The notes below the pieces were generated by a model that saw nothing but the letters and a program-made list of their open reading frames with translations, was not told the DNA's origin and did not search any database. Both the position numbers and the translations under genes were made by a program. A DNA stretch of 64,000 bases from a virus. Of the stretch, positions 30,067 through 56,835 are shown one piece after another; position 1 is the stretch's first letter, and every line of letters begins with the position of its first letter. The stretch is taken from IMG/VR virus record IMGVR_UViG_3300035698_024280; one strand, given 5' to 3'.

Positions 30067-30899
30067 TATACTCCTGTAGTCTTATCCCAAGCAGATACGT
30101 GCAGTCTTGTTAATCCGCGTACTCTATATTTCTTAGCTAATTCCATACACATAGCAGTCTTCGTATGGAAGTCTTTCTGATCATCAAGCGCCGGCATAAT
30201 ACACACCTTAGAGAGCGGTATATTAAATGGTGTAATATAGCTATCTATAGCTTCTAACATATCTTCTTCTCCAGAAACAACAAATTTAAATGTATAGTTA
30301 CCATTGGCCAAAGACATTATAGATTCAATAGCTGCTGGGACAATCCGCTGCTGCTCACTCATCCCAGAATTAGAAAGTTTAGCACTACAATTAATTTGAG
30401 AAAGTTCCGCTAACAGTTCTGGACTCATCTCAATTGTACCATTTGTTTCTATTTCGTTATAGGGCAAATACCACAATTCATTATTTTCGCAGTACGCTTC
30501 AAAGTAATCCATAAAGGATATAATAGATTTAGAATTTCTAGGTAATGAAGGCTCCCCCCCTGTCCATATTAGATGAATATCACCAATAGCAATTTCCTTT
30601 ATTAAATTTTGCTCGTTCCACCTATTCAATAAATAATCCATTGGCTTCTTATGACCGAATGTCCAGACTGGAATAGTATCACAAGTCCATGTTGCTTTCC
30701 CACTCTCGTGAAGATCTCCTTTAAATGATCCAGAGTCTACAGCGCCCTCTCCTTGTGACTTAACATCTTTAACTAGAGCATTAGAAGCTCCGCATGTTAA
30801 GTTACAATCTCTTAATCTAACAAAATAAGCGGGTACTCCTGTTGAGAACCCCTCCCCCTGTATAGAATAAAAATCTTCTGATATAGTAATATTATCCAT
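30066..30899 (-). CDS. queE: 7-carboxy-7-deazaguanine synthase (radical SAM)
   Basis: E.FYSIQGEG...G.PA.FVRL..CNL.C...CDT, TGGEP, IETNGT, SAKL.NSG, FKFVV, RLHV..W. Confidence 0.92.
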   Translation of the reverse strand: MDNITISEDFYSIQGEGFSTGVPAYFVRLRDCNLTCGASNALVKDVKSQGEGAVDSGSFKGDLHESGKATWTCDTIPVWTFGHKKPMDYLLNRWNEQNLIKEIAIGDIHLIWTGGEPSLPRNSKSIISFMDYFEAYCENNELWYLPYNEIETNGTIEMSPELLAELSQINCSAKLSNSGMSEQQRIVPAAIESIMSLANGNYTFKFVVSGEEDMLEAIDSYITPFNIPLSKVCIMPALDDQKDFHTKTAMCMELAKKYRVRGLTRLHVSAWDKTTGV

Positions 30900-32938: not shown

Positions 32939-33415
32939 TCAGCTATTAACTAAATTGATGCTATAGTTCGCAGGCAACACTGCAAAGTCTGCTTCGTTCC
33001 AAGTGGTAGCATGGAAGCCTAAACCATACGCTTTGCCTACAATGTGTCGGGTCTGTGACCCTTCGCATTGCGATTGCGCCGTCGATTCGTCGTCGCCGTC
33101 GCCCATAAGAATTAGCTGATCATCATAAGTTTCTGTGGCGGGTTTCGGGGATGTAATGCCACCTTCATCAGAGATGGTATCATTAAATGTCGATGCAGGC
33201 GCCATCTTCTTCTTCGGAGCTGCCACCGCTTTAGGAGGGAAGGGGTGCTCTGGGTAACCTGGTCCGGGGTCAACGACTGTGCCACATTTTGGAGCGACGA
33301 ATAGTACGACGACGTCCTTCCTCCCGGAAGTGGCATAGCCTGGCTTCATAATTCCGAGGTAGGGGTAGGCTGGTTTTGCATCGTCAGTGATGCTATTAAT
33401 TTTGGTAACTTTCAT
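32939..33415 (-). CDS. Family A paralog 6, with low-complexity insertion
   Basis: YPYLG..VVLF..PK.GTV..[~70 aa insert]..G....W.E.DF. Confidence 0.75.
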   Translation of the reverse strand: MKVTKINSITDDAKPAYPYLGIMKPGYATSGRKDVVVLFVAPKCGTVVDPGPGYPEHPFPPKAVAAPKKKMAPASTFNDTISDEGGITSPKPATETYDDQLILMGDGDDESTAQSQCEGSQTRHIVGKAYGLGFHATTWNEADFAVLPANYSINLVNS

Positions 33416-41662: not shown

Positions 41663-41881
41663 CTATAGCCCCTTAACGCCGTTTTCATATCCCACTGCAT
41701 AAGCGTTAGTAATAGCGGCATATATAGGGTCGTCCTTATCTATCATGTATTGCTCGCAGTATTTAATTGCTCGTTTCTGAGCACGGAAGAGATCCTCTGT
41801 GCCATCCTGCTTGACTCTCAATGATGAAATGACCTCTGAGGAGTCGAGGGTCGGGGCTGTTGCTTTGCTGAGATTATCCAT
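41663..41881 (-). CDS. Hypothetical protein
   Basis: Promoter plus A/C-rich leader. Confidence 0.65.
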   Translation of the reverse strand: MDNLSKATAPTLDSSEVISSLRVKQDGTEDLFRAQKRAIKYCEQYMIDKDDPIYAAITNAYAVGYENGVKGL

Positions 41882-41928
41882 AATAATTGTTTTTGTTGTC
41901 TTCTACTCTATTATTATACAGTAGTTCC

Positions 41929-42171
41929 TTAGTACGGCGCTTTGATTTCTTCCGCTACAATATCCCAATCAACATCAATTGGGAGCTGTCGAGCAGCTCG
42001 AATTAGAGATCGAATGGCGCGTGGGTATGCATTGATTGCTGCAGTCTCGTATGAATCAAGATCAGGTTCCGTACCTTCTTCAATATGTTCAGTGAGAGAT
42101 TCGACATTTTGCTGCAGCCCTAATAGGGTATTAGCAAATTGGCAATAGGACATGTTAGGGCTGTTTCTCAT
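41929..42171 (-). CDS. Hypothetical early protein
   Basis: Leaderless promoter at its ATG. Confidence 0.7.
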   Translation of the reverse strand: MRNSPNMSYCQFANTLLGLQQNVESLTEHIEEGTEPDLDSYETAAINAYPRAIRSLIRAARQLPIDVDWDIVAEEIKAPY

Positions 42172-42192
42172 ACTATTATTATAGTGTCGTTC

Positions 42193-42399
42193 CTATTCCT
42201 CAAACTTTAAAACTTCTACAGGAAACTGCCCTACGGGGAGGATCTTATATGATACTGATATACCTGAATATGAATCCCGACCAGACGCCTTAGACTTATC
42301 AACGACAATAGTTGCTTCGATTTGCGTCTCCTCAATGCCAATAATTTCAATACTAAAATTCCACCGTCGGCATTCTTTTCTGGTTATAATATACTGCAT
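42193..42399 (-). CDS. Hypothetical early protein
   Basis: Start at MQYIITRK after TATAAT-6 nt. Confidence 0.6.
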   Translation of the reverse strand: MQYIITRKECRRWNFSIEIIGIEETQIEATIVVDKSKASGRDSYSGISVSYKILPVGQFPVEVLKFEE

Positions 42400-42429
42400 G
42401 TTCTTATTATAAAGAGGTTTGTTAATTGA

Positions 42430-42517
42430 CGGCCCCTGCAGGATTTGAACCTGCATCTCAACATTAAATGTTTTGAAAGCATTTAACCGTCTCGCTCTAC
42501 CGTTGAGCTAAGGGACC
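42430..42517 (-). tRNA. tRNA-like RNA with elongated anticodon arm (loop CTTTCAAAA)
   Basis: Acceptor GGTCCCT/AGGGGCC, D arm GCTC-AACGGTA-GAGC, T arm GCAGG-TTCAAAT-CCTGC; 39 nt between D and T arms. Confidence 0.65.
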
Positions 42518-42576
42518 TAAAGTTTTTGCTATTTAATTTATGGCTCACTCTTATTATAAAGAGGTTTATTAATTGA

Positions 42577-42663
42577 GGGTCCCCGCAGGATTTGGACCTG
42601 CATCTCATGACGATAATGTTGCGAACATTTAACCGACCGGCTCTACCGTTGAGCTAAGGGACC
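42577..42663 (-). tRNA. Second tRNA-like RNA with elongated anticodon arm (loop TTCGCAA)
   Basis: Acceptor GGTCCCT/GGGGACC, same D arm, T loop TCCAAAT; tandem duplicate of the previous unit. Confidence 0.6.
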
Positions 42664-42756
42664 TAAAGTTTTTGCTATTTAATTTATAGCTTGTGAGAGC
42701 ATACTGAGCTTCATTGTCTCCCGCGTTCTCTCTGTGTTGATGGTTGATCTGTAATG

Positions 42757-43053
42757 TCAATCGCCTGCACCTTTGAGAAGGTTGTACGTGCAGTTGACAA
42801 TGTCGTTCTCTCTGTGTTGCATCTTATCGAGACCATTTGCAATAACTCCTGCCGGCATGCCTGTTGCTTCCGCAATCTTCTGGATACCTTCTTCATTATT
42901 CATACCCTCGAAGATATATATGGCGCTATGCGCGATGTCTGCATTCCGCTTTGCGGCCTTCACATCAACGAGCCACCATTTGGCTCGATTGAATGAACGT
43001 CGGATGCGACTGGGGATTGAGCGGGGTGATTGTCTTCTGTCTCTGGTTCTCAT
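42757..43053 (-). CDS. Hypothetical basic protein, possible HTH
   Basis: IQKIAEATGMPAGVIANGL resembles an HTH. Confidence 0.5.
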   Translation of the reverse strand: MRTRDRRQSPRSIPSRIRRSFNRAKWWLVDVKAAKRNADIAHSAIYIFEGMNNEEGIQKIAEATGMPAGVIANGLDKMQHRENDIVNCTYNLLKGAGD

Positions 43054-43056
43054 ATA

Positions 43057-43347
43057 CTAAATTTTACGGGCTTGTTTCTGATTAGCTCTTCTTCTCTGTT
43101 GAGCCATTGATTGCAGAGGCTCCTTAGGGAAGACTGAGACAACCTTTTCGTGAGTCTCTTCGCAGATATCTTTTGCTACTTGCTCATCGCACCCTTTATC
43201 GACAAGCATTCCCCACATTGCGTCGCCGGATAGATCAAAGGGCTTTAGTTCCCCACCCTCTTCTGAATGAATTTCGTTTGCTATAACTATCAAGGCTTCG
43301 CAAATCCAGCGCTCCCACTCACCTCTCGTCTTATCGTTTCCTATCAT
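43057..43347 (-). CDS. Hypothetical early protein
   Basis: Leaderless promoter. Confidence 0.7.
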   Translation of the reverse strand: MIGNDKTRGEWERWICEALIVIANEIHSEEGGELKPFDLSGDAMWGMLVDKGCDEQVAKDICEETHEKVVSVFPKEPLQSMAQQRRRANQKQARKI

Positions 43348-43372
43348 ATTATTATTATATTAAGGTTACCTT

Positions 43373-43621
43373 TTATGAGTAATAAACTTCATTCTCTGCT
43401 GCAACCCGGACCAATTCTGCATGACTCTCACATAGCGACTGGATAAAGGGAGGGCACTGGATCTTATAATCTGGAGTCTTATTCCAATTAAAAATATAAT
43501 CACCGAAGAATTGTGTTACAGTAAAATTACCGATAGTTAAATTTGCGCAGCCGACCCAGGTTTCAAGCTGCGTTGGGTCTGAGCCTTTAATAATTTGTTC
43601 CGTGTAAGATATAATTTGCAT
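43373..43621 (-). CDS. Hypothetical early protein
   Basis: Leaderless promoter. Confidence 0.7.
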   Translation of the reverse strand: MQIISYTEQIIKGSDPTQLETWVGCANLTIGNFTVTQFFGDYIFNWNKTPDYKIQCPPFIQSLCESHAELVRVAAENEVYYS

Positions 43622-43686
43622 ACTATTATTATAAAGGGGTTCGTTTTATTTTAATCTCTCTGAAGCGTTGTCAATCTTGCACAAAC

Positions 43687-45221: not shown

Positions 45222-45422
45222 TTATTCCTCAAAGACCTTGATTGCTCTCTTGATGTCAGAATAACTAACTTCAATTGCAAGATCATGGCCTGTCATCGAA
45301 AGGTTGATGAGAGTCTCCCCTCTGTGATTGTCGGAAGCGCTGATCTTCAGTTCTGATTTAAGTGCTTCCTCATCCCAACCCTCCAAAGAGGAATTAGATT
45401 TAATTGGTATTGATACAATCAT
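45222..45422 (-). CDS. Hypothetical protein
   Basis: TAATG coupling to the RNA ligase. Confidence 0.6.
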   Translation of the reverse strand: MIVSIPIKSNSSLEGWDEEALKSELKISASDNHRGETLINLSMTGHDLAIEVSYSDIKRAIKVFEE

Positions 45423-46039
45423 TATTTAACTTTACTTTTAGGCATATCATCATCCTTGATAGTCTTCTTGAATCCTACCCCCCCAGCAACATGATAAATA
45501 ATAATGCCCTCAGGGTTCATAAACCCAGGAACAGCCGAGCTCCCATTGTATTTAAGCTCTTCTAAAATCTCATCTGGATTTACTTCAGCAAACGGACCAG
45601 TCCAAAGAACTGGTACAATATCGCAACACGGTGGAAGTTCTTCCTGCATCCTGACAATCGTAGGATTTGGCTGGCGAATCTCTTTTGGCTCATCCGCAGC
45701 GTAGTGCCATCTCTCGGTATTGAACAGACTAAATCGACGGTCGAGGAGACCATATGATCGTTGAATCTTTTGCCCCCACCACTCGCCGTAGTGTCGCCCA
45801 GGTCCTAAAGAAGTCTTTAGCTCGTCGCGATGATCTTCGACCCATTGAGCAAAGCCGTAATTATCATTTTCAGGAGTGAGCCATCGTGACCTACTCCCCG
45901 CTAGAACTGAACCATCTTCAGTGATGCACACTTGGCTATTAGTACCATCGATCTTCTCTGTGACAATACAATCCCGTGAAAAGCGGCCCATCTTCGGCCA
46001 CTCCCGAAATTCTTCTGTAATATTAGTTTGTTCTGACAT
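45422..46039 (-). CDS. RNA ligase, Rnl2-like nucleotidyltransferase domain
   Basis: Motif I TEKIDGTN, GSRSR, motif III YGEWWG, F.LFN, motif IV EGIII, motif V FKK. Confidence 0.85.
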   Translation of the reverse strand: MSEQTNITEEFREWPKMGRFSRDCIVTEKIDGTNSQVCITEDGSVLAGSRSRWLTPENDNYGFAQWVEDHRDELKTSLGPGRHYGEWWGQKIQRSYGLLDRRFSLFNTERWHYAADEPKEIRQPNPTIVRMQEELPPCCDIVPVLWTGPFAEVNPDEILEELKYNGSSAVPGFMNPEGIIIYHVAGGVGFKKTIKDDDMPKSKVK

Positions 46040-46459: not shown

Positions 46460-46714
46460 AATTATAACGGGGTTCCTAATAATATCTTTATGATTTCAAT
46501 TTCATAAATTTGCCAGCCACTCCAGGAGATTATTGAATTTCCTTTTAATATAATCTTCATCAGATTCATCCTCCTGATCTATCTCAGGGGGGAGTGGCGG
46601 GGGTTCCTCCATTGCGATGGCACGCCGAATGCGTTTATCAACCTTTCTAATAGCTCTGTCTATAATATTCATATGTGTTTTTTTGTGTTCGTTACAATTT
46701 GTGTATTTGACTCC

Positions 46715-48626: not shown

Positions 48627-48908
48627 CTATAAATTATATCGCGGTGAAGCTTTCGAACCTGGTTCGAATGAGGTTAACTTAAAGTTAACCAGGTTAACTT
48701 TTGAATCAAAGCAAAAATCACCGAAGAATCCAGGAGCATACTTCACCGCAGACGCCAATTGATTTAAATCATCACAATATGACAGATCATCCTGATCGAA
48801 CAACTCTAATGCAGCGTCTCGAGCCCTTCTGATTCGCGTAGAAAGGTCGCTTAGCAGTGCTGCTGCTCGATGGTCGAACATAATGAGGGAGTTTAATGAT
48901 TGCGACAT
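48627..48908 (-). CDS. Family B paralog with 20-nt palindromic insertion altering the C-terminus
   Basis: GGTTAACTTTAAGTTAACCT inserted relative to the adjacent copy. Confidence 0.7.
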   Translation of the reverse strand: MSQSLNSLIMFDHRAAALLSDLSTRIRRARDAALELFDQDDLSYCDDLNQLASAVKYAPGFFGDFCFDSKVNLVNFKLTSFEPGSKASPRYNL

Positions 48909-53388: not shown

Positions 53389-53418
53389 ACTATTATTATA
53401 AAGGGGCTCCGAAAAAAT

Positions 53419-53489
53419 TGCCCTTTCAGGAATCGAACCCGCATCAGCGTACACTATTTGCACACCGCTCTGCCATTGAGCTAGAGGAC
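53419..53489 (-). pseudogene. Degenerate tRNA-like copy related to 53702..53772
   Basis: D arm and T loop (GGGTTCGATTCC) retained; acceptor mismatches; anticodon loop AATAG not canonical. Confidence 0.55.
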
Positions 53490-53555
53490 TTAAAGTAAAT
53501 GTATATTAAGAGCTAATAGCTCTATATTATAGAGGATGTTACCATCCGGAAAAGG

Positions 53556-53629
53556 TGCACCAGGTCGGGCTTGAACCGACGACCTAGTTTTTATGAGAAA
53601 CCCGCTCTAACCAACTGAGCTACTGGTGC
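53556..53629 (-). tRNA. tRNA-CAU, probably Ile2 (lysidine type) rather than Met
   Basis: Perfect cloverleaf: GCACCAG/CTGGTGC, loop CT-CAT-AA; C4-G69 and C5-G68 pairs; no encoded CCA (ACCT). Confidence 0.88.
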
Positions 53630-53701
53630 AAAAAGTTTTTGTTTTTTATTTATGGATTAATTTCATTTACCATATTATTATTATAAAGGGGTTCCGAAAA
53701 A

Positions 53702-54748: not shown

Positions 54749-56835
54749 ACTATTATTATACAGGGGTTCCTTAATTGTACTTTATATCACAATAAGTATC
54801 TAACTTGTCCCATACAGCGAACATAACGACAGATCTAACACTCCTTAAAGTTTTTTGTGTAAATATCGACTCTACATACTGCCGATTATGACTAAATCTT
54901 TGAGGCGTGTATAAACCTGTATCAAAAATAGTGTATGATAGCATAAGAGGCCCACTGGAAGGTAATAATAATAGCTGGTCTATATTAGGAGTATTATTCA
55001 TAGGATTTAAGCGACGCGCGCACAAATAACCCTATATTAGAGAGCTTTGTTGTTGGTGATGGTATGGGAGGCATATAAGAGGTTAGAAGATCGTGAAACC
55101 AATACCGCTCACTGCAGTTATTTGATGTAATTAAAATATTAGAGTGTGGATCTGTAGTACTATCTATTGCCGAAAAAAACTCATCGACGATCGATTTATA
55201 TTTTATTGGAATTTTGGAAGTATTAGAGAAACTCATATGAATGTAGTTTTTGTGTAATATGTAGAGCTATGCCTCTTCTTATACCGTATGAATCCTCATT
55301 AAAAAGTGCAGCTTCGTATGAATTTCTAATATTAACTAATGTACTGATTTCATAATAATAATAGTCGATAGTTTTATTGTTGATATTGCAGTCTAAGCTG
55401 TTGGAATATATTAATTCGCGCCAGTTAGAAAATGCCTGTCGCGCTTGCGTAATGAGCCGATTGAGATCAAAGGATCTTTTTTCTTTTACAGTCTTCATAT
55501 AAATGCAGTTTACAGCCCACAAAAAATTCTATATTATTATTAGTTTTAAAATGAAGCGAATCAAAGTAGGATAAATAGCTTTTTGAATCTAGAGCATATA
55601 CCACAGCAGACTGAACCTGGTGAAAAATATCGAAGACCAGTCTACGCTTACTGAGTTTGCTTTTTGTATTAAACATATGAACTAAATTTATCGTTGAGAT
55701 TTTTTATCATACTAGCTCGAGTGTAGATAGTCAATTTTCTATTAAATAATAATTTGGTTTCCTGGTAGTGGTAGTTTTGCTTATAATTGTTTGCGCCGAC
55801 GGTTAATGTATAACATTCCTCATGATCATCAAATAAATAACGTCGTCCCGGTATATATAGCCGAGATTTGGGTAATGGTCGCATTACATAATTAATGGTC
55901 TTATTTGTATCCATACAGTTTTTTTGTTATAAAATTACTTAATGAGTTTGTCAACTTCACATTAGTTTTAAGGGCATACAAACTCATAATGTCGGCATTA
56001 TCATATAACTTACAACCAGATTCCGCAGAGTAAAATGAAAAGGGATTACCCTTAGACGATATATTTCGAACTTCTTTAAACTCTCTCCAAATATTACAGA
56101 ATCGATTTAATTGCAGTGCTGTAGAATTATTCATATGTTTTAAGTTTACGATTTATAATATAATTATACGGGGGTTCCTCCCATTAAATCATTAATATAA
56201 TTATATTTTGAACTGCTTTAACCCCTATCCAAATGTTTTAGAATCAGACTGATTGTAGTGCTGTAGAATTATTTGTATGTTTCAAGTTTAAGAATTATAA
56301 TATGTACTATCGCCCATCTTTCCCGTCGCCTGGCGACGGGATTAATCGCCATTAATTCATTAATATACCTAAATTCTTCCCAAATAGATGTAGCAGCGCG
56401 GTTTATATCTGATATATTACTCATACGACTCAAGTTTAATGCATACTTGCGACCATACAGCATACTTCTTCATATATTTTTGAGATATGTTATTGTAAGC
56501 GGATGCAACATTAGTATAATTGTAATATAGTTGTTTATTGTTTGCAGTAATACACCATTTTTTGGAAATACTATGTTTATGTTTCGTTAATTGCGAAATG
56601 CAAATTACAGGTCTCACCATAAAAGTATAAACGCTATTCATATTCTTTCATTTTATCGTGTATTATGCCGCTCTTCTTATCACTAAGGCGTTCGTCTGAT
56701 TTACGCTCAAACAATATTTTAACTGTATTATACCCATACAAATTATTATGAGATTCTGTAGAAACGTATCGTGTCAGTTTATGAAAGCGATTAAATTCAG
56801 CCCAAATTAAAGCGTAATGGTATTGTCTGCTGGTA

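Follow-up and report, generated by a model that had tools for sequence, protein, structure and literature searches.

A 64,000-nucleotide stretch of the IMG/VR virus record IMGVR_UViG_3300035698_024280 (the window) carries, on the minus strand, two adjacent genes that are shaped like a transfer RNA (tRNA) but have an over-long middle arm. We judge the chances about even that the two are tandem paralogues which descend from an ordinary class-I phage tRNA and encode small tRNA-shaped RNAs that do not decode. They lie in a block of small early genes of an uncultured T4-like phage, whose portal, major head protein, RNR and helicase have counterparts among the PHROGs families and whose major capsid protein shares only ~33% identity with its cyanomyovirus counterparts. 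We refer to the gene that is upstream in the direction of transcription as copy A and to the downstream one as copy B; an earlier reading of the locus, made from the letters alone (the sequence-only reading), had called them copy 2 and copy 1, respectively.

Tandem Repeats Finder (TRF) reports a repeat with a period of 146 bp, 2.0 copies and 87% matches (42402-42691), and ARAGORN, one of the tools with which the sequence-only reading had proposed to check the locus, calls a minus-strand "tRNA-Phe(aaa)" in each unit (42577-42663, 87 nt, and 42430-42517, 88 nt). In Rfam scans, RF00005 is the best tRNA-clan model at both sites, scoring 35.9 bits for copy A and 47.4 bits for copy B (gathering score 29), and its alignment leaves 34 and 28 nt, respectively, unaligned at the position of the anticodon arm. 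The spacing between D stem and T stem is 38 nt in copy A and 39 nt in copy B, compared with ~22 in a normal tRNA. The tandem tRNA-like pair that had been announced at 42400-42690 is thus real, although its units measure 146 rather than ~147 bp and its genes lie on the minus strand.

Outside the centre, both copies retain the architecture of a class-I tRNA, with a 7-bp acceptor stem, U8-A9, a D arm GCUC/AACGGUA/GAGC containing G18G19, and a 5-bp T stem (T arm GCAGG/TTCAAAT/CCTGC). The core of copy B is fully canonical (U8, A14, G18G19, A21, G53, T54-T55-C56, A58, C61, A15-U48), with the canonical T loop UUCAAAU, a G discriminator and a U3-G70 pair, while the T loop of copy A reads UCCAAAU, which corresponds to U55C. 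With this one exception, the earlier description of normal acceptor, D and T arms separated by 38-39 nt agrees with the sequence. Both copies therefore combine the features by which RF00005 members are recognised, namely a score above the gathering threshold, the 7-bp acceptor stem, the G18G19 D arm and the T arm (with C55 in place of U55 in copy A). They depart from a canonical tRNA in the anticodon arm, where a 5-6-bp stem and a 7-nt loop are replaced by an interrupted helix of 10-11 bp that is closed by a loop of 9 nt in copy B and 7 nt in copy A.

When the acceptor, D and T arms are enforced in the fold, the centre of each copy forms one helix, ~15 nt over the normal length. In copy B, the arm GACG-G-TTAAATG [CTTTCAAAA] CATTTAA-TGTT comprises 11 bp with a single bulged G and a 9-nt loop; in the RNA, it runs from G26 and A through GACG-G-UUAAAUG [CUUUCAAAA] CAUUUAA-UGUU to the variable region GAGAU. 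The 7-bp inverted repeat of this arm has no second occurrence in the window. Copy A has an arm of ~10 bp with two bulges and a 7-nt loop, GG-T-CGGT-TA-AATG [TTCGCAA] CATT-ATCG-TC, and its RNA continues from C26 through GG-U-CGGU-UA-AAUG [UUCGCAA] CAUU-AUCG-UC to a 7-nt variable region, AUGAGAU. The extended stems that had been described earlier, TTAAATG/CATTTAA in copy B and AATG/CATT around CGC in copy A, are present in the respective constrained folds. Whether both central 7-mers fit the loop consensus YUNNNRA, as had also been stated, depends on the copy: the inner loops can be written as U-U-NNN-A-A, but that of copy B has 9 nt and shrinks to 7 nt only when its C and A are counted as a pair.

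To compare these arms with chance, we counted the pairs of a single arm that starts at the anticodon-stem position and contains at most two small bulges. Copy B reaches 13 pairs (P = 0.022 against shuffled sequences) and copy A 12 pairs (P = 0.056), so that arms of this kind are uncommon in shuffles but not overwhelmingly so.

The differences between the two units are concentrated in this region: 12 of 42 columns differ in the centre and 7 of 106 in the leader, core and trailer (Fisher p = 7.5e-4), which bears out the earlier remark that the copies differ mostly in the middle arm. A MAFFT alignment places the difference in the centre nearer 50%, and the flanks of the two units are 93-97% identical. 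Such a concentration implies that the centre was altered by a process other than clock-like drift, for which replacement, templated palindrome mutation and selection are candidates. The two changes in the acceptor stem both preserve pairing (U3-G70 to U3-A70 and U7-A66 to U7-G66), but being only two events they prove little.

Sequence comparison shows that the body of the two genes is that of an ordinary phage tRNA; its closest counterparts are CAU-type tRNAs and the tRNA-Thr that the phage itself encodes. The 5' half differs from the phage's own tRNA-Thr(UGU) at 1 position in 24 nt, a related 5' half is found in a normal tRNA-Met(CAU), and the T arm together with the 3' acceptor strand has IMG/VR matches solely in normal CAU-type tRNAs. 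Each unit also contains the leader element CAAAAACTTT, which had been noticed earlier and was found in both copies. The normal tRNA(CAU) at 53629 has a related leader (CCATAAAT..CAAAAACTTT) in front of it, and the leader parts CCAUAAAU...CAAAAACUUU occur there as well; the units thus use the promoter-leader cassette of genuine phage tRNAs. The label "engineered-looking" that the sequence-only reading had attached to the pair is accordingly unwarranted, as an ordinary phage tRNA body sits inside the usual cassette.

The promoter of this cassette belongs to a recurring family. The motif GG-AACCYCnn-TATAAT-AATAGT-ATG occurs 15-17 times, always on the minus strand, compared with 0.28 occurrences expected; the sites span 36036-62258 (for example 43624-43641, 53676-53693 and 54751-54768) and share no conserved -35 element. 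From its sequence and recurrence, AACCYCnnTATAAT is evidently the early promoter of the phage, and since the ATG follows 6 nt past the -10 box, early mRNAs would be leaderless. At 46474 and 59143, GTATAG stands in place of the ATG after the motif, and the respective transcripts may be non-coding. Each 146-bp unit carries a copy of the promoter, which gives copy B a promoter of its own. The transcript of copy A would come from read-through of an operon of open reading frames (ORFs) of 82, 96 and 98 aa, and no terminator-like site is predicted in 41800-43400. The coordinates of all these features are collected in the table below.

Coordinates of the tandem tRNA-shaped genes and associated features in the window
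Feature	Coordinates	Strand	Basis and remarks
Two 146-bp tandem units	42402..42692	-	TRF and alignments; each consists of a 29-nt leader, a tRNA-shaped gene and a 28-nt promoter-containing trailer
Copy A (upstream in transcription), 87-nt tRNA-shaped gene	42577..42663	-	ARAGORN, Rfam, constrained fold; acceptor GGTCCCT/GGGGACC, discriminator C, T loop TCCAAAT (U55C)
Copy B (downstream), 88-nt tRNA-shaped gene	42430..42517	-	ARAGORN, Rfam, direct sequence reading
Middle arm of copy A	42609..42638	-	ViennaRNA fold of the centre and constrained cloverleaf
Middle arm of copy B	42460..42491	-	Constrained fold
Leader of copy B, GAGCCATAAATTAAATAGCAAAAACTTTA	42518..42546	-	Same leader before copy A at 42664-42692
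Early-promoter copy between A and B (AACCTCTT-TATAAT-AAGA)	42549..42566	-	Motif; predicted start ~29 nt before the 5' end of copy B
Identical promoter copy after B	42402..42419	-	Motif; predicted driver of a leaderless 68-aa ORF with ATG at 42399
Nearest promoter upstream of copy A	43624..43641	-	Motif; copy A has no promoter of its own

Published active tRNAs have anticodon stems of 5 bp and at most 6 bp (PMC7609411). By this length rule, the arms of both copies, which are 5-6 bp too long, most likely cannot decode. In the scheme that we favour, RNase P would cleave the transcripts at G1, their 3' ends would be trimmed, and host enzymes would add the CCA, because it is encoded in neither gene. 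The product would be an L-shaped RNA with an arm so long that its loop could not lie in the decoding centre at the same time as the acceptor end in the peptidyl-transferase centre. Such an RNA would act, if at all, as a stable tRNA mimic or scaffold for tRNA-binding factors of the host or the phage, and the middle arm would be its variable, specificity-giving part. The proposal of a tRNA mimic in the sequence-only reading is compatible with all observations and matches a recurring kind of phage RNA; the specific functions that it offered are unsupported.

For about 50 years, the phages T4 and T5 have been known to make tRNA-shaped RNAs that do not decode and to which no function has been assigned. 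By analogy, the pair would belong with T4 RNA C and T5 RNA1 and RNA2 to one kind of molecule, which is not a homology family. Both copies show its defining traits: they are phage-encoded, have a tRNA-like acceptor/T-arm domain and an over-long internal arm, and lack a usable anticodon. At the sequence level, only the T arm aligns with the named T4 and T5 RNAs, over 13-16 nt. RNA1 and RNA2 of T5 (NC_005859, misc_RNA T5s03 30501-30644 and T5s06 32959-33083) are annotated as "tRNA-like stable RNA with unknown functions". Similar to the pair, they are encoded among or near tRNA genes and have an acceptor stem, a D-like arm, a T arm and a much elongated middle arm; their T arm is near-identical to that of the pair (16 nt at 94%), with no similarity outside it. 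They differ from it in being 125-144 nt long and class II-like with an additional hairpin, whereas the pair comprises RNAs of 87-88 nt with a single extended arm, arranged in tandem.

In T4, RNA C (species 1, rnaC) and RNA D (species 2, rnaD) are encoded at 70908-71171 of NC_000866. Like the pair, rnaC belongs to a T4-type phage, in which it lies beside the tRNA cluster, and it has a canonical T arm (CCGGG-TTCGAAT-CCCGG), a closing 5'/3' stem and long extra hairpins. Unlike the pair, it lacks a canonical D arm and is 139 nt long, and no sequence homology is detectable. The function of RNA C is still called unknown, and the small RNAs of T4 are late RNAs (PMC9697503). In contrast, the pair lies in an early-promoter region, 11 kb from the main tRNA group of its phage. 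Compared with the canonical class-I tRNA (RF00005), the pair shares the acceptor stem, D arm, T arm, tertiary-contact bases, a variable region of 4-5 nt, an RNase P-type leader and the lack of an encoded CCA; it differs in its anticodon arm of 10-11 bp instead of 5 bp, in the 9-nt loop of copy B and in the U55C of copy A.

RNAs of a similar shape also recur in uncultured phages. We scanned IMG/VR for the same D arm followed by 30-50 nt and a generic T loop and obtained 62 loci with 50 distinct sequences; these include ~30 tRNA-shaped genes in which the anticodon arm is over-long or sealed and ~15 UAU tRNAs with long variable arms. In three pairs of relatives (L083/L093, L060/L062 and L081/L096), the arm is kept by pair-preserving or compensatory changes. 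The look-alikes (L045, L050, L056, L060/L062, L061, L067, L074, L083/L093 and others) share with the pair a D arm of identical sequence, normal acceptor and T arms and one long hairpin. They differ from it in being heterogeneous and not shown to form one homologous family, in the tetraloops or 3-12-nt loops that many of them carry, and in their arm sequences. In cellular genomes, the same pattern yielded 64 loci in 596 Gb, about half of them in DPANN archaea, where spliced tRNA introns are normal. One of the IMG/VR pairs, L081:5885-5975 and L096:11723-11815, is a tRNA whose anticodon stem has the normal 5 bp and whose loop, 17 nt long, is conserved: GCGGCCGCAA(G/U)AACAGA. Its stem shows two fully compensatory pair changes (CGAAG/CUUCG versus UGGAG/CUCCA), and by this sequence evidence it is a selected enlarged-loop tRNA.

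The most serious rival holds that a normal CAU-type or Thr-like tRNA gene lost its function when a quasi-palindromic, hairpin-forming sequence was inserted into the anticodon loop, and that a tandem duplication then copied the gene along with the neighbouring promoter. Transcription of the two copies may continue, but they would be functionless, and the concentrated differences would reflect mutation-prone palindromic DNA rather than selection. We consider this explanation possible, though short of probable. The sequence-only reading had put "simple decay" aside in favour of RNA mimics, but decay is still a serious competitor, favoured by the U55C of copy A, by the weak arm that changes register from one copy to the other and by a second degenerate tRNA in the phage.

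Several observations weigh in favour of decay and against functional RNAs. The extra helix is AU-rich and thermodynamically weak. When the central 38-39 nt were compared with mononucleotide shuffles, their folding energy was only -4.4 to -4.8 kcal/mol, and 31% (copy B) and 56% (copy A) of the shuffles folded at least as well. The RNA folding that had been suggested as a check on the earlier claim therefore gives one long arm per copy, but with an energy no better than that of shuffled sequences. Moreover, the arms of copies A and B lie in different registers despite a common 5' strand, CGGUUAAAUG, and because this strand is paired differently, the two arms cannot be superimposed; the basal anticodon helix of copy A is broken in the register of copy B. 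Copy A joins a poor basal helix to its U55C, and the promoter of copy B is possibly a mere by-product of the duplication.

The arm of copy B can also be read as a remnant of a normal tRNA. Its junction resembles that of a normal tRNA: residue 26 is followed by a purine-purine mismatch at 27-43, of a kind that the phage's tRNA-Thr also shows, and then by 4 bp, so that the arm is readable as the original anticodon stem with a loop enlarged by ~17 nt. In this register, a 4-5-bp stem (GACG/TGTT plus an A-G mismatch) closes a 17-nt loop insert that ends in an inverted TTAAATG, the last 7 of the ~17 extra nt being an inverted copy of UUAAAUG. Mutations of this type do happen in this genome: a quasi-palindromic insertion (48672-48701) is found in one member of a paralogous gene pair, where GGTTAACTT-A-AAGTTAACC-T-GGTTAACTTT (48652-48701) represents an inverted duplication of local sequence, and the same kind of event could have made the hairpin of copy B.

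The genome also shows that tRNA genes decay in it. The "tRNA-Tyr(ata)" that ARAGORN calls at 53418-53490 on the minus strand is mismatched at 1-72 and 7-66; its T stem is 4 bp long, and its loop, CAAAUAG, lacks U33. Rfam does not see it even at E <= 1, and it keeps a promoter-like site and a CTTTA leader.

Homologues of the two genes, which a test of covariation or persistence would need, were not found in the searched collections, that is, the phage collection, IMG/VR, JGI metagenome contigs and GTDB genomes. A blastn search of 50,697 phage records returned no homologue of the locus, and copy B alone, at a relaxed E-value, matched in these records only the common 5' half in the normal tRNA-Ile of KVP40-like vibriophages. 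Exact and degenerate pattern scans of IMG/VR (5' half; D arm with T loop; T arm with 3' acceptor strand) recovered only normal or unrelated long tRNAs, the scan of JGI metagenome contigs gave one match, an unrelated tRNA with a 28-nt anticodon loop, and the GTDB genomes contained no homologue of the two genes. Nine metagenome contigs from several samples, the longest of 194,996 bp, do carry the locus, but with 100% identity in this region and no less than 99.97% across 6 kb; by their sequence they are one clonal population and hence uninformative.

Other observations speak against decay. The tRNA core of copy B is flawless, both acceptor-stem substitutions keep pairing, both diverged centres still fold into one correctly anchored arm, and both inner loops fit U-U-NNN-A-A. 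In addition, the elongated-arm phage look-alikes show compensatory change as a class, and stable RNAs of this kind are known in T4 and T5.

A reading as intron-bearing precursors is improbable. It supposes that ~17 nt are excised from each pre-tRNA by a nuclease and that the phage RNA ligase (45422-46039) rejoins the ends into a 71-72-nt tRNA with, depending on the junction, an anticodon such as UUU, UAU or UAA. ARAGORN fits each copy with the model of a tRNA that contains an intron, an RNA ligase of PF09414 is encoded 3 kb upstream, and the removal of 17 nt from the 24-nt "loop" of copy B can leave a 7-nt loop reading AAA, AUA or UUA, which are frequent codons in this AT-rich phage. A metagenome tRNA, L032, likewise combines a normal 5-bp anticodon stem with a 28-nt loop. 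However, the bulge-helix-bulge motif (3-nt bulge, 4-bp helix, 3-nt bulge) is absent: copy B has a single 1-nt bulge on the 5' side and a helix that is continuous on the 3' side, and copy A has bulges of 1 nt and 2 nt, both on the 5' side. Between A and B, neither the supposed splice junctions nor the basal stems agree, every candidate mature loop has G32, and none of 23 ligase relatives in IMG/VR has such a gene within 10 kb. Short protein-spliced tRNA introns are not known from bacteria or their phages. These points, above all the missing motif, the unconserved junctions and the ligase relatives without a nearby RNA, run counter to the earlier suggestion of an intron-like precursor for the phage RNA ligase.

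The ligase itself (PF09414, 205 aa, minus strand) belongs to a widespread family, with 2684 relatives at E <= 1e-20 in metagenomes and some bacteria, a breadth that likewise speaks against the intron reading. A Nevskia ramosa relative shares 62% identity with it, and outside this phage population none is closer than ~60%. Of the ten neighbouring ORFs that were searched, none was recognised as a kinase/phosphatase partner. As for L032:1434-1526 (JGI contig Ga0058899_10018434), it scores 61.5 bits in Rfam, and its stem GGGCG/CGCCU closes the 28-nt loop, which contains an internal hairpin and a repeated TTCAG; removal of 21 nt could leave a CAU, GAU or CUU anticodon loop. Its 2.2-kb contig begins with another odd tRNA of 91 nt.

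It is still less probable that the tRNA shape serves only in cis, as an RNase P/RNase Z cleavage site on early polycistronic transcripts (tRNA punctuation), with the arm free to drift. For RNase P and RNase Z, the acceptor and T-arm domain suffices, and their needs would explain a conserved core next to a free arm. Copy A does lie at the 3' end of a promoter-driven three-ORF operon in the region devoid of predicted terminators. Yet the downstream ORF is leaderless and has its own promoter, so that its expression does not need cleavage, and copy B stands directly behind a promoter with nothing upstream to release. Furthermore, the D arm and all tertiary-contact bases are retained, though dispensable for a minimal RNase P substrate.

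Hardly credible is the notion of decoding suppressor or frameshifting tRNAs that read UGA (UCA loop of copy B) and GCG (CGC loop of copy A) from the tip of the long arm, for which one could adduce that both inner loops are writable as U-U-NNN-A-A and that copy B has G73, the discriminator of tRNA-Trp. The arm extends ~5-6 bp (15-20 Angstrom) beyond the geometry of the ribosomal A site, given active stems of 5-6 bp (PMC7609411), and the loop of copy B has 9 nt. TGA is a normal stop that ends 12 of 57 long ORFs, read-through of TGA gains no more than read-through of TAG and gives no signature of stop-codon recoding, and the structural genes are intact under code 11. The opal or frameshift suppressor of the sequence-only reading is thus unsupported, by helix length as well as by the use of TGA as a stop.

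A number of other identities were rejected. The selenocysteine tRNA (RF01852), which the UCA loop had brought into consideration, has 8/5 or 9/4 acceptor/T stems, a long variable arm and a 6-bp anticodon stem, compared with 7/5 stems and a 4-7-nt variable region here. Group I introns exceed 200 nt and have a P1-P9 core, the insert here measures ~15-17 nt, and Rfam matched no intron family, nor any family but RF00005. Neither a transfer-messenger RNA (tmRNA) nor a two-piece tmRNA is found by ARAGORN in the window; the D stem is normal, and 88 nt are too short for a tag ORF. A Y RNA (YrlA, RF02553), whose permuted tRNA-like module has its ends in a Ro-binding stem, has no Rfam match at E <= 1 in 30000-64000, and both genes end in the acceptor stem and are unpermuted. 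GTTAAAT is not flanked by the 5-bp stem of a class II long variable arm, and no remnant of a CAU anticodon loop is recognisable. Mutagenesis of the diversity-generating retroelement type does not fit either, as the differences are not adenine-specific and there is no reverse transcriptase gene among the ORFs searched.

If the two genes do encode non-decoding RNAs, the pair could show a widespread class of phage "tRNA-scaffold" RNAs in the act of diversifying, a broader proposal that we advance only tentatively and consider unlikely as it stands. The tRNA body would provide promoter-independent processing, stability and access to partners, the exchangeable arm would serve as a specificity module, and two recent copies would have been given different arms and targets, for example distinct tRNA-directed defence nucleases of the host or tRNA-modifying enzymes. 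A near-identical tandem pair that differs in the middle arm amounts to a natural swap experiment. If the RNAs are expressed, it would indicate the arm as the functional, fast-evolving part and offer two matched variants for pull-downs or defence/anti-defence assays; if the genes are pseudogenes, the locus records the death of a phage tRNA gene through hairpin insertion and duplication. In either case, ARAGORN-type "intron tRNA" calls in phages (here "tRNA-Phe AAA") are not to be counted as decoding capacity.

Short ORFs accompany the tRNA-type cassettes. A leaderless 7-codon mini-ORF (MVNEINP*) lies between the promoter and the tRNA(CAU) at 53629 (53630-53693, minus strand), and a similar 7-codon ORF (MLSQAIN*) with a decayed promoter remnant precedes copy A (~42700-42678). 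The codon ATA is very frequent in this phage, at 30 per 1000. The 98-aa ORF upstream has no relative beyond this phage population, its sole match being a 99%-identical fragment. For the ORF at 42193-42456 (minus strand), gene callers are split on identical metagenome contigs between a product of 87 aa, which starts inside copy B, and one of 68 aa. We rejected the 87-aa start at 42456, because the leaderless start at 42399, 6 nt after the promoter, fits better.

In IMG/VR, phage tRNAs of ~90 nt with anticodon UAU are a recurrent group (L002, L005, L006, L007, L043, L051, L063, L065, L072, L073, L075, L076, L088 and L091) with a long variable arm (GCRCCAGATTAGYGC) and apparently an 8-bp acceptor stem. 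They are allo-tRNA-like and may read the AUA codon.

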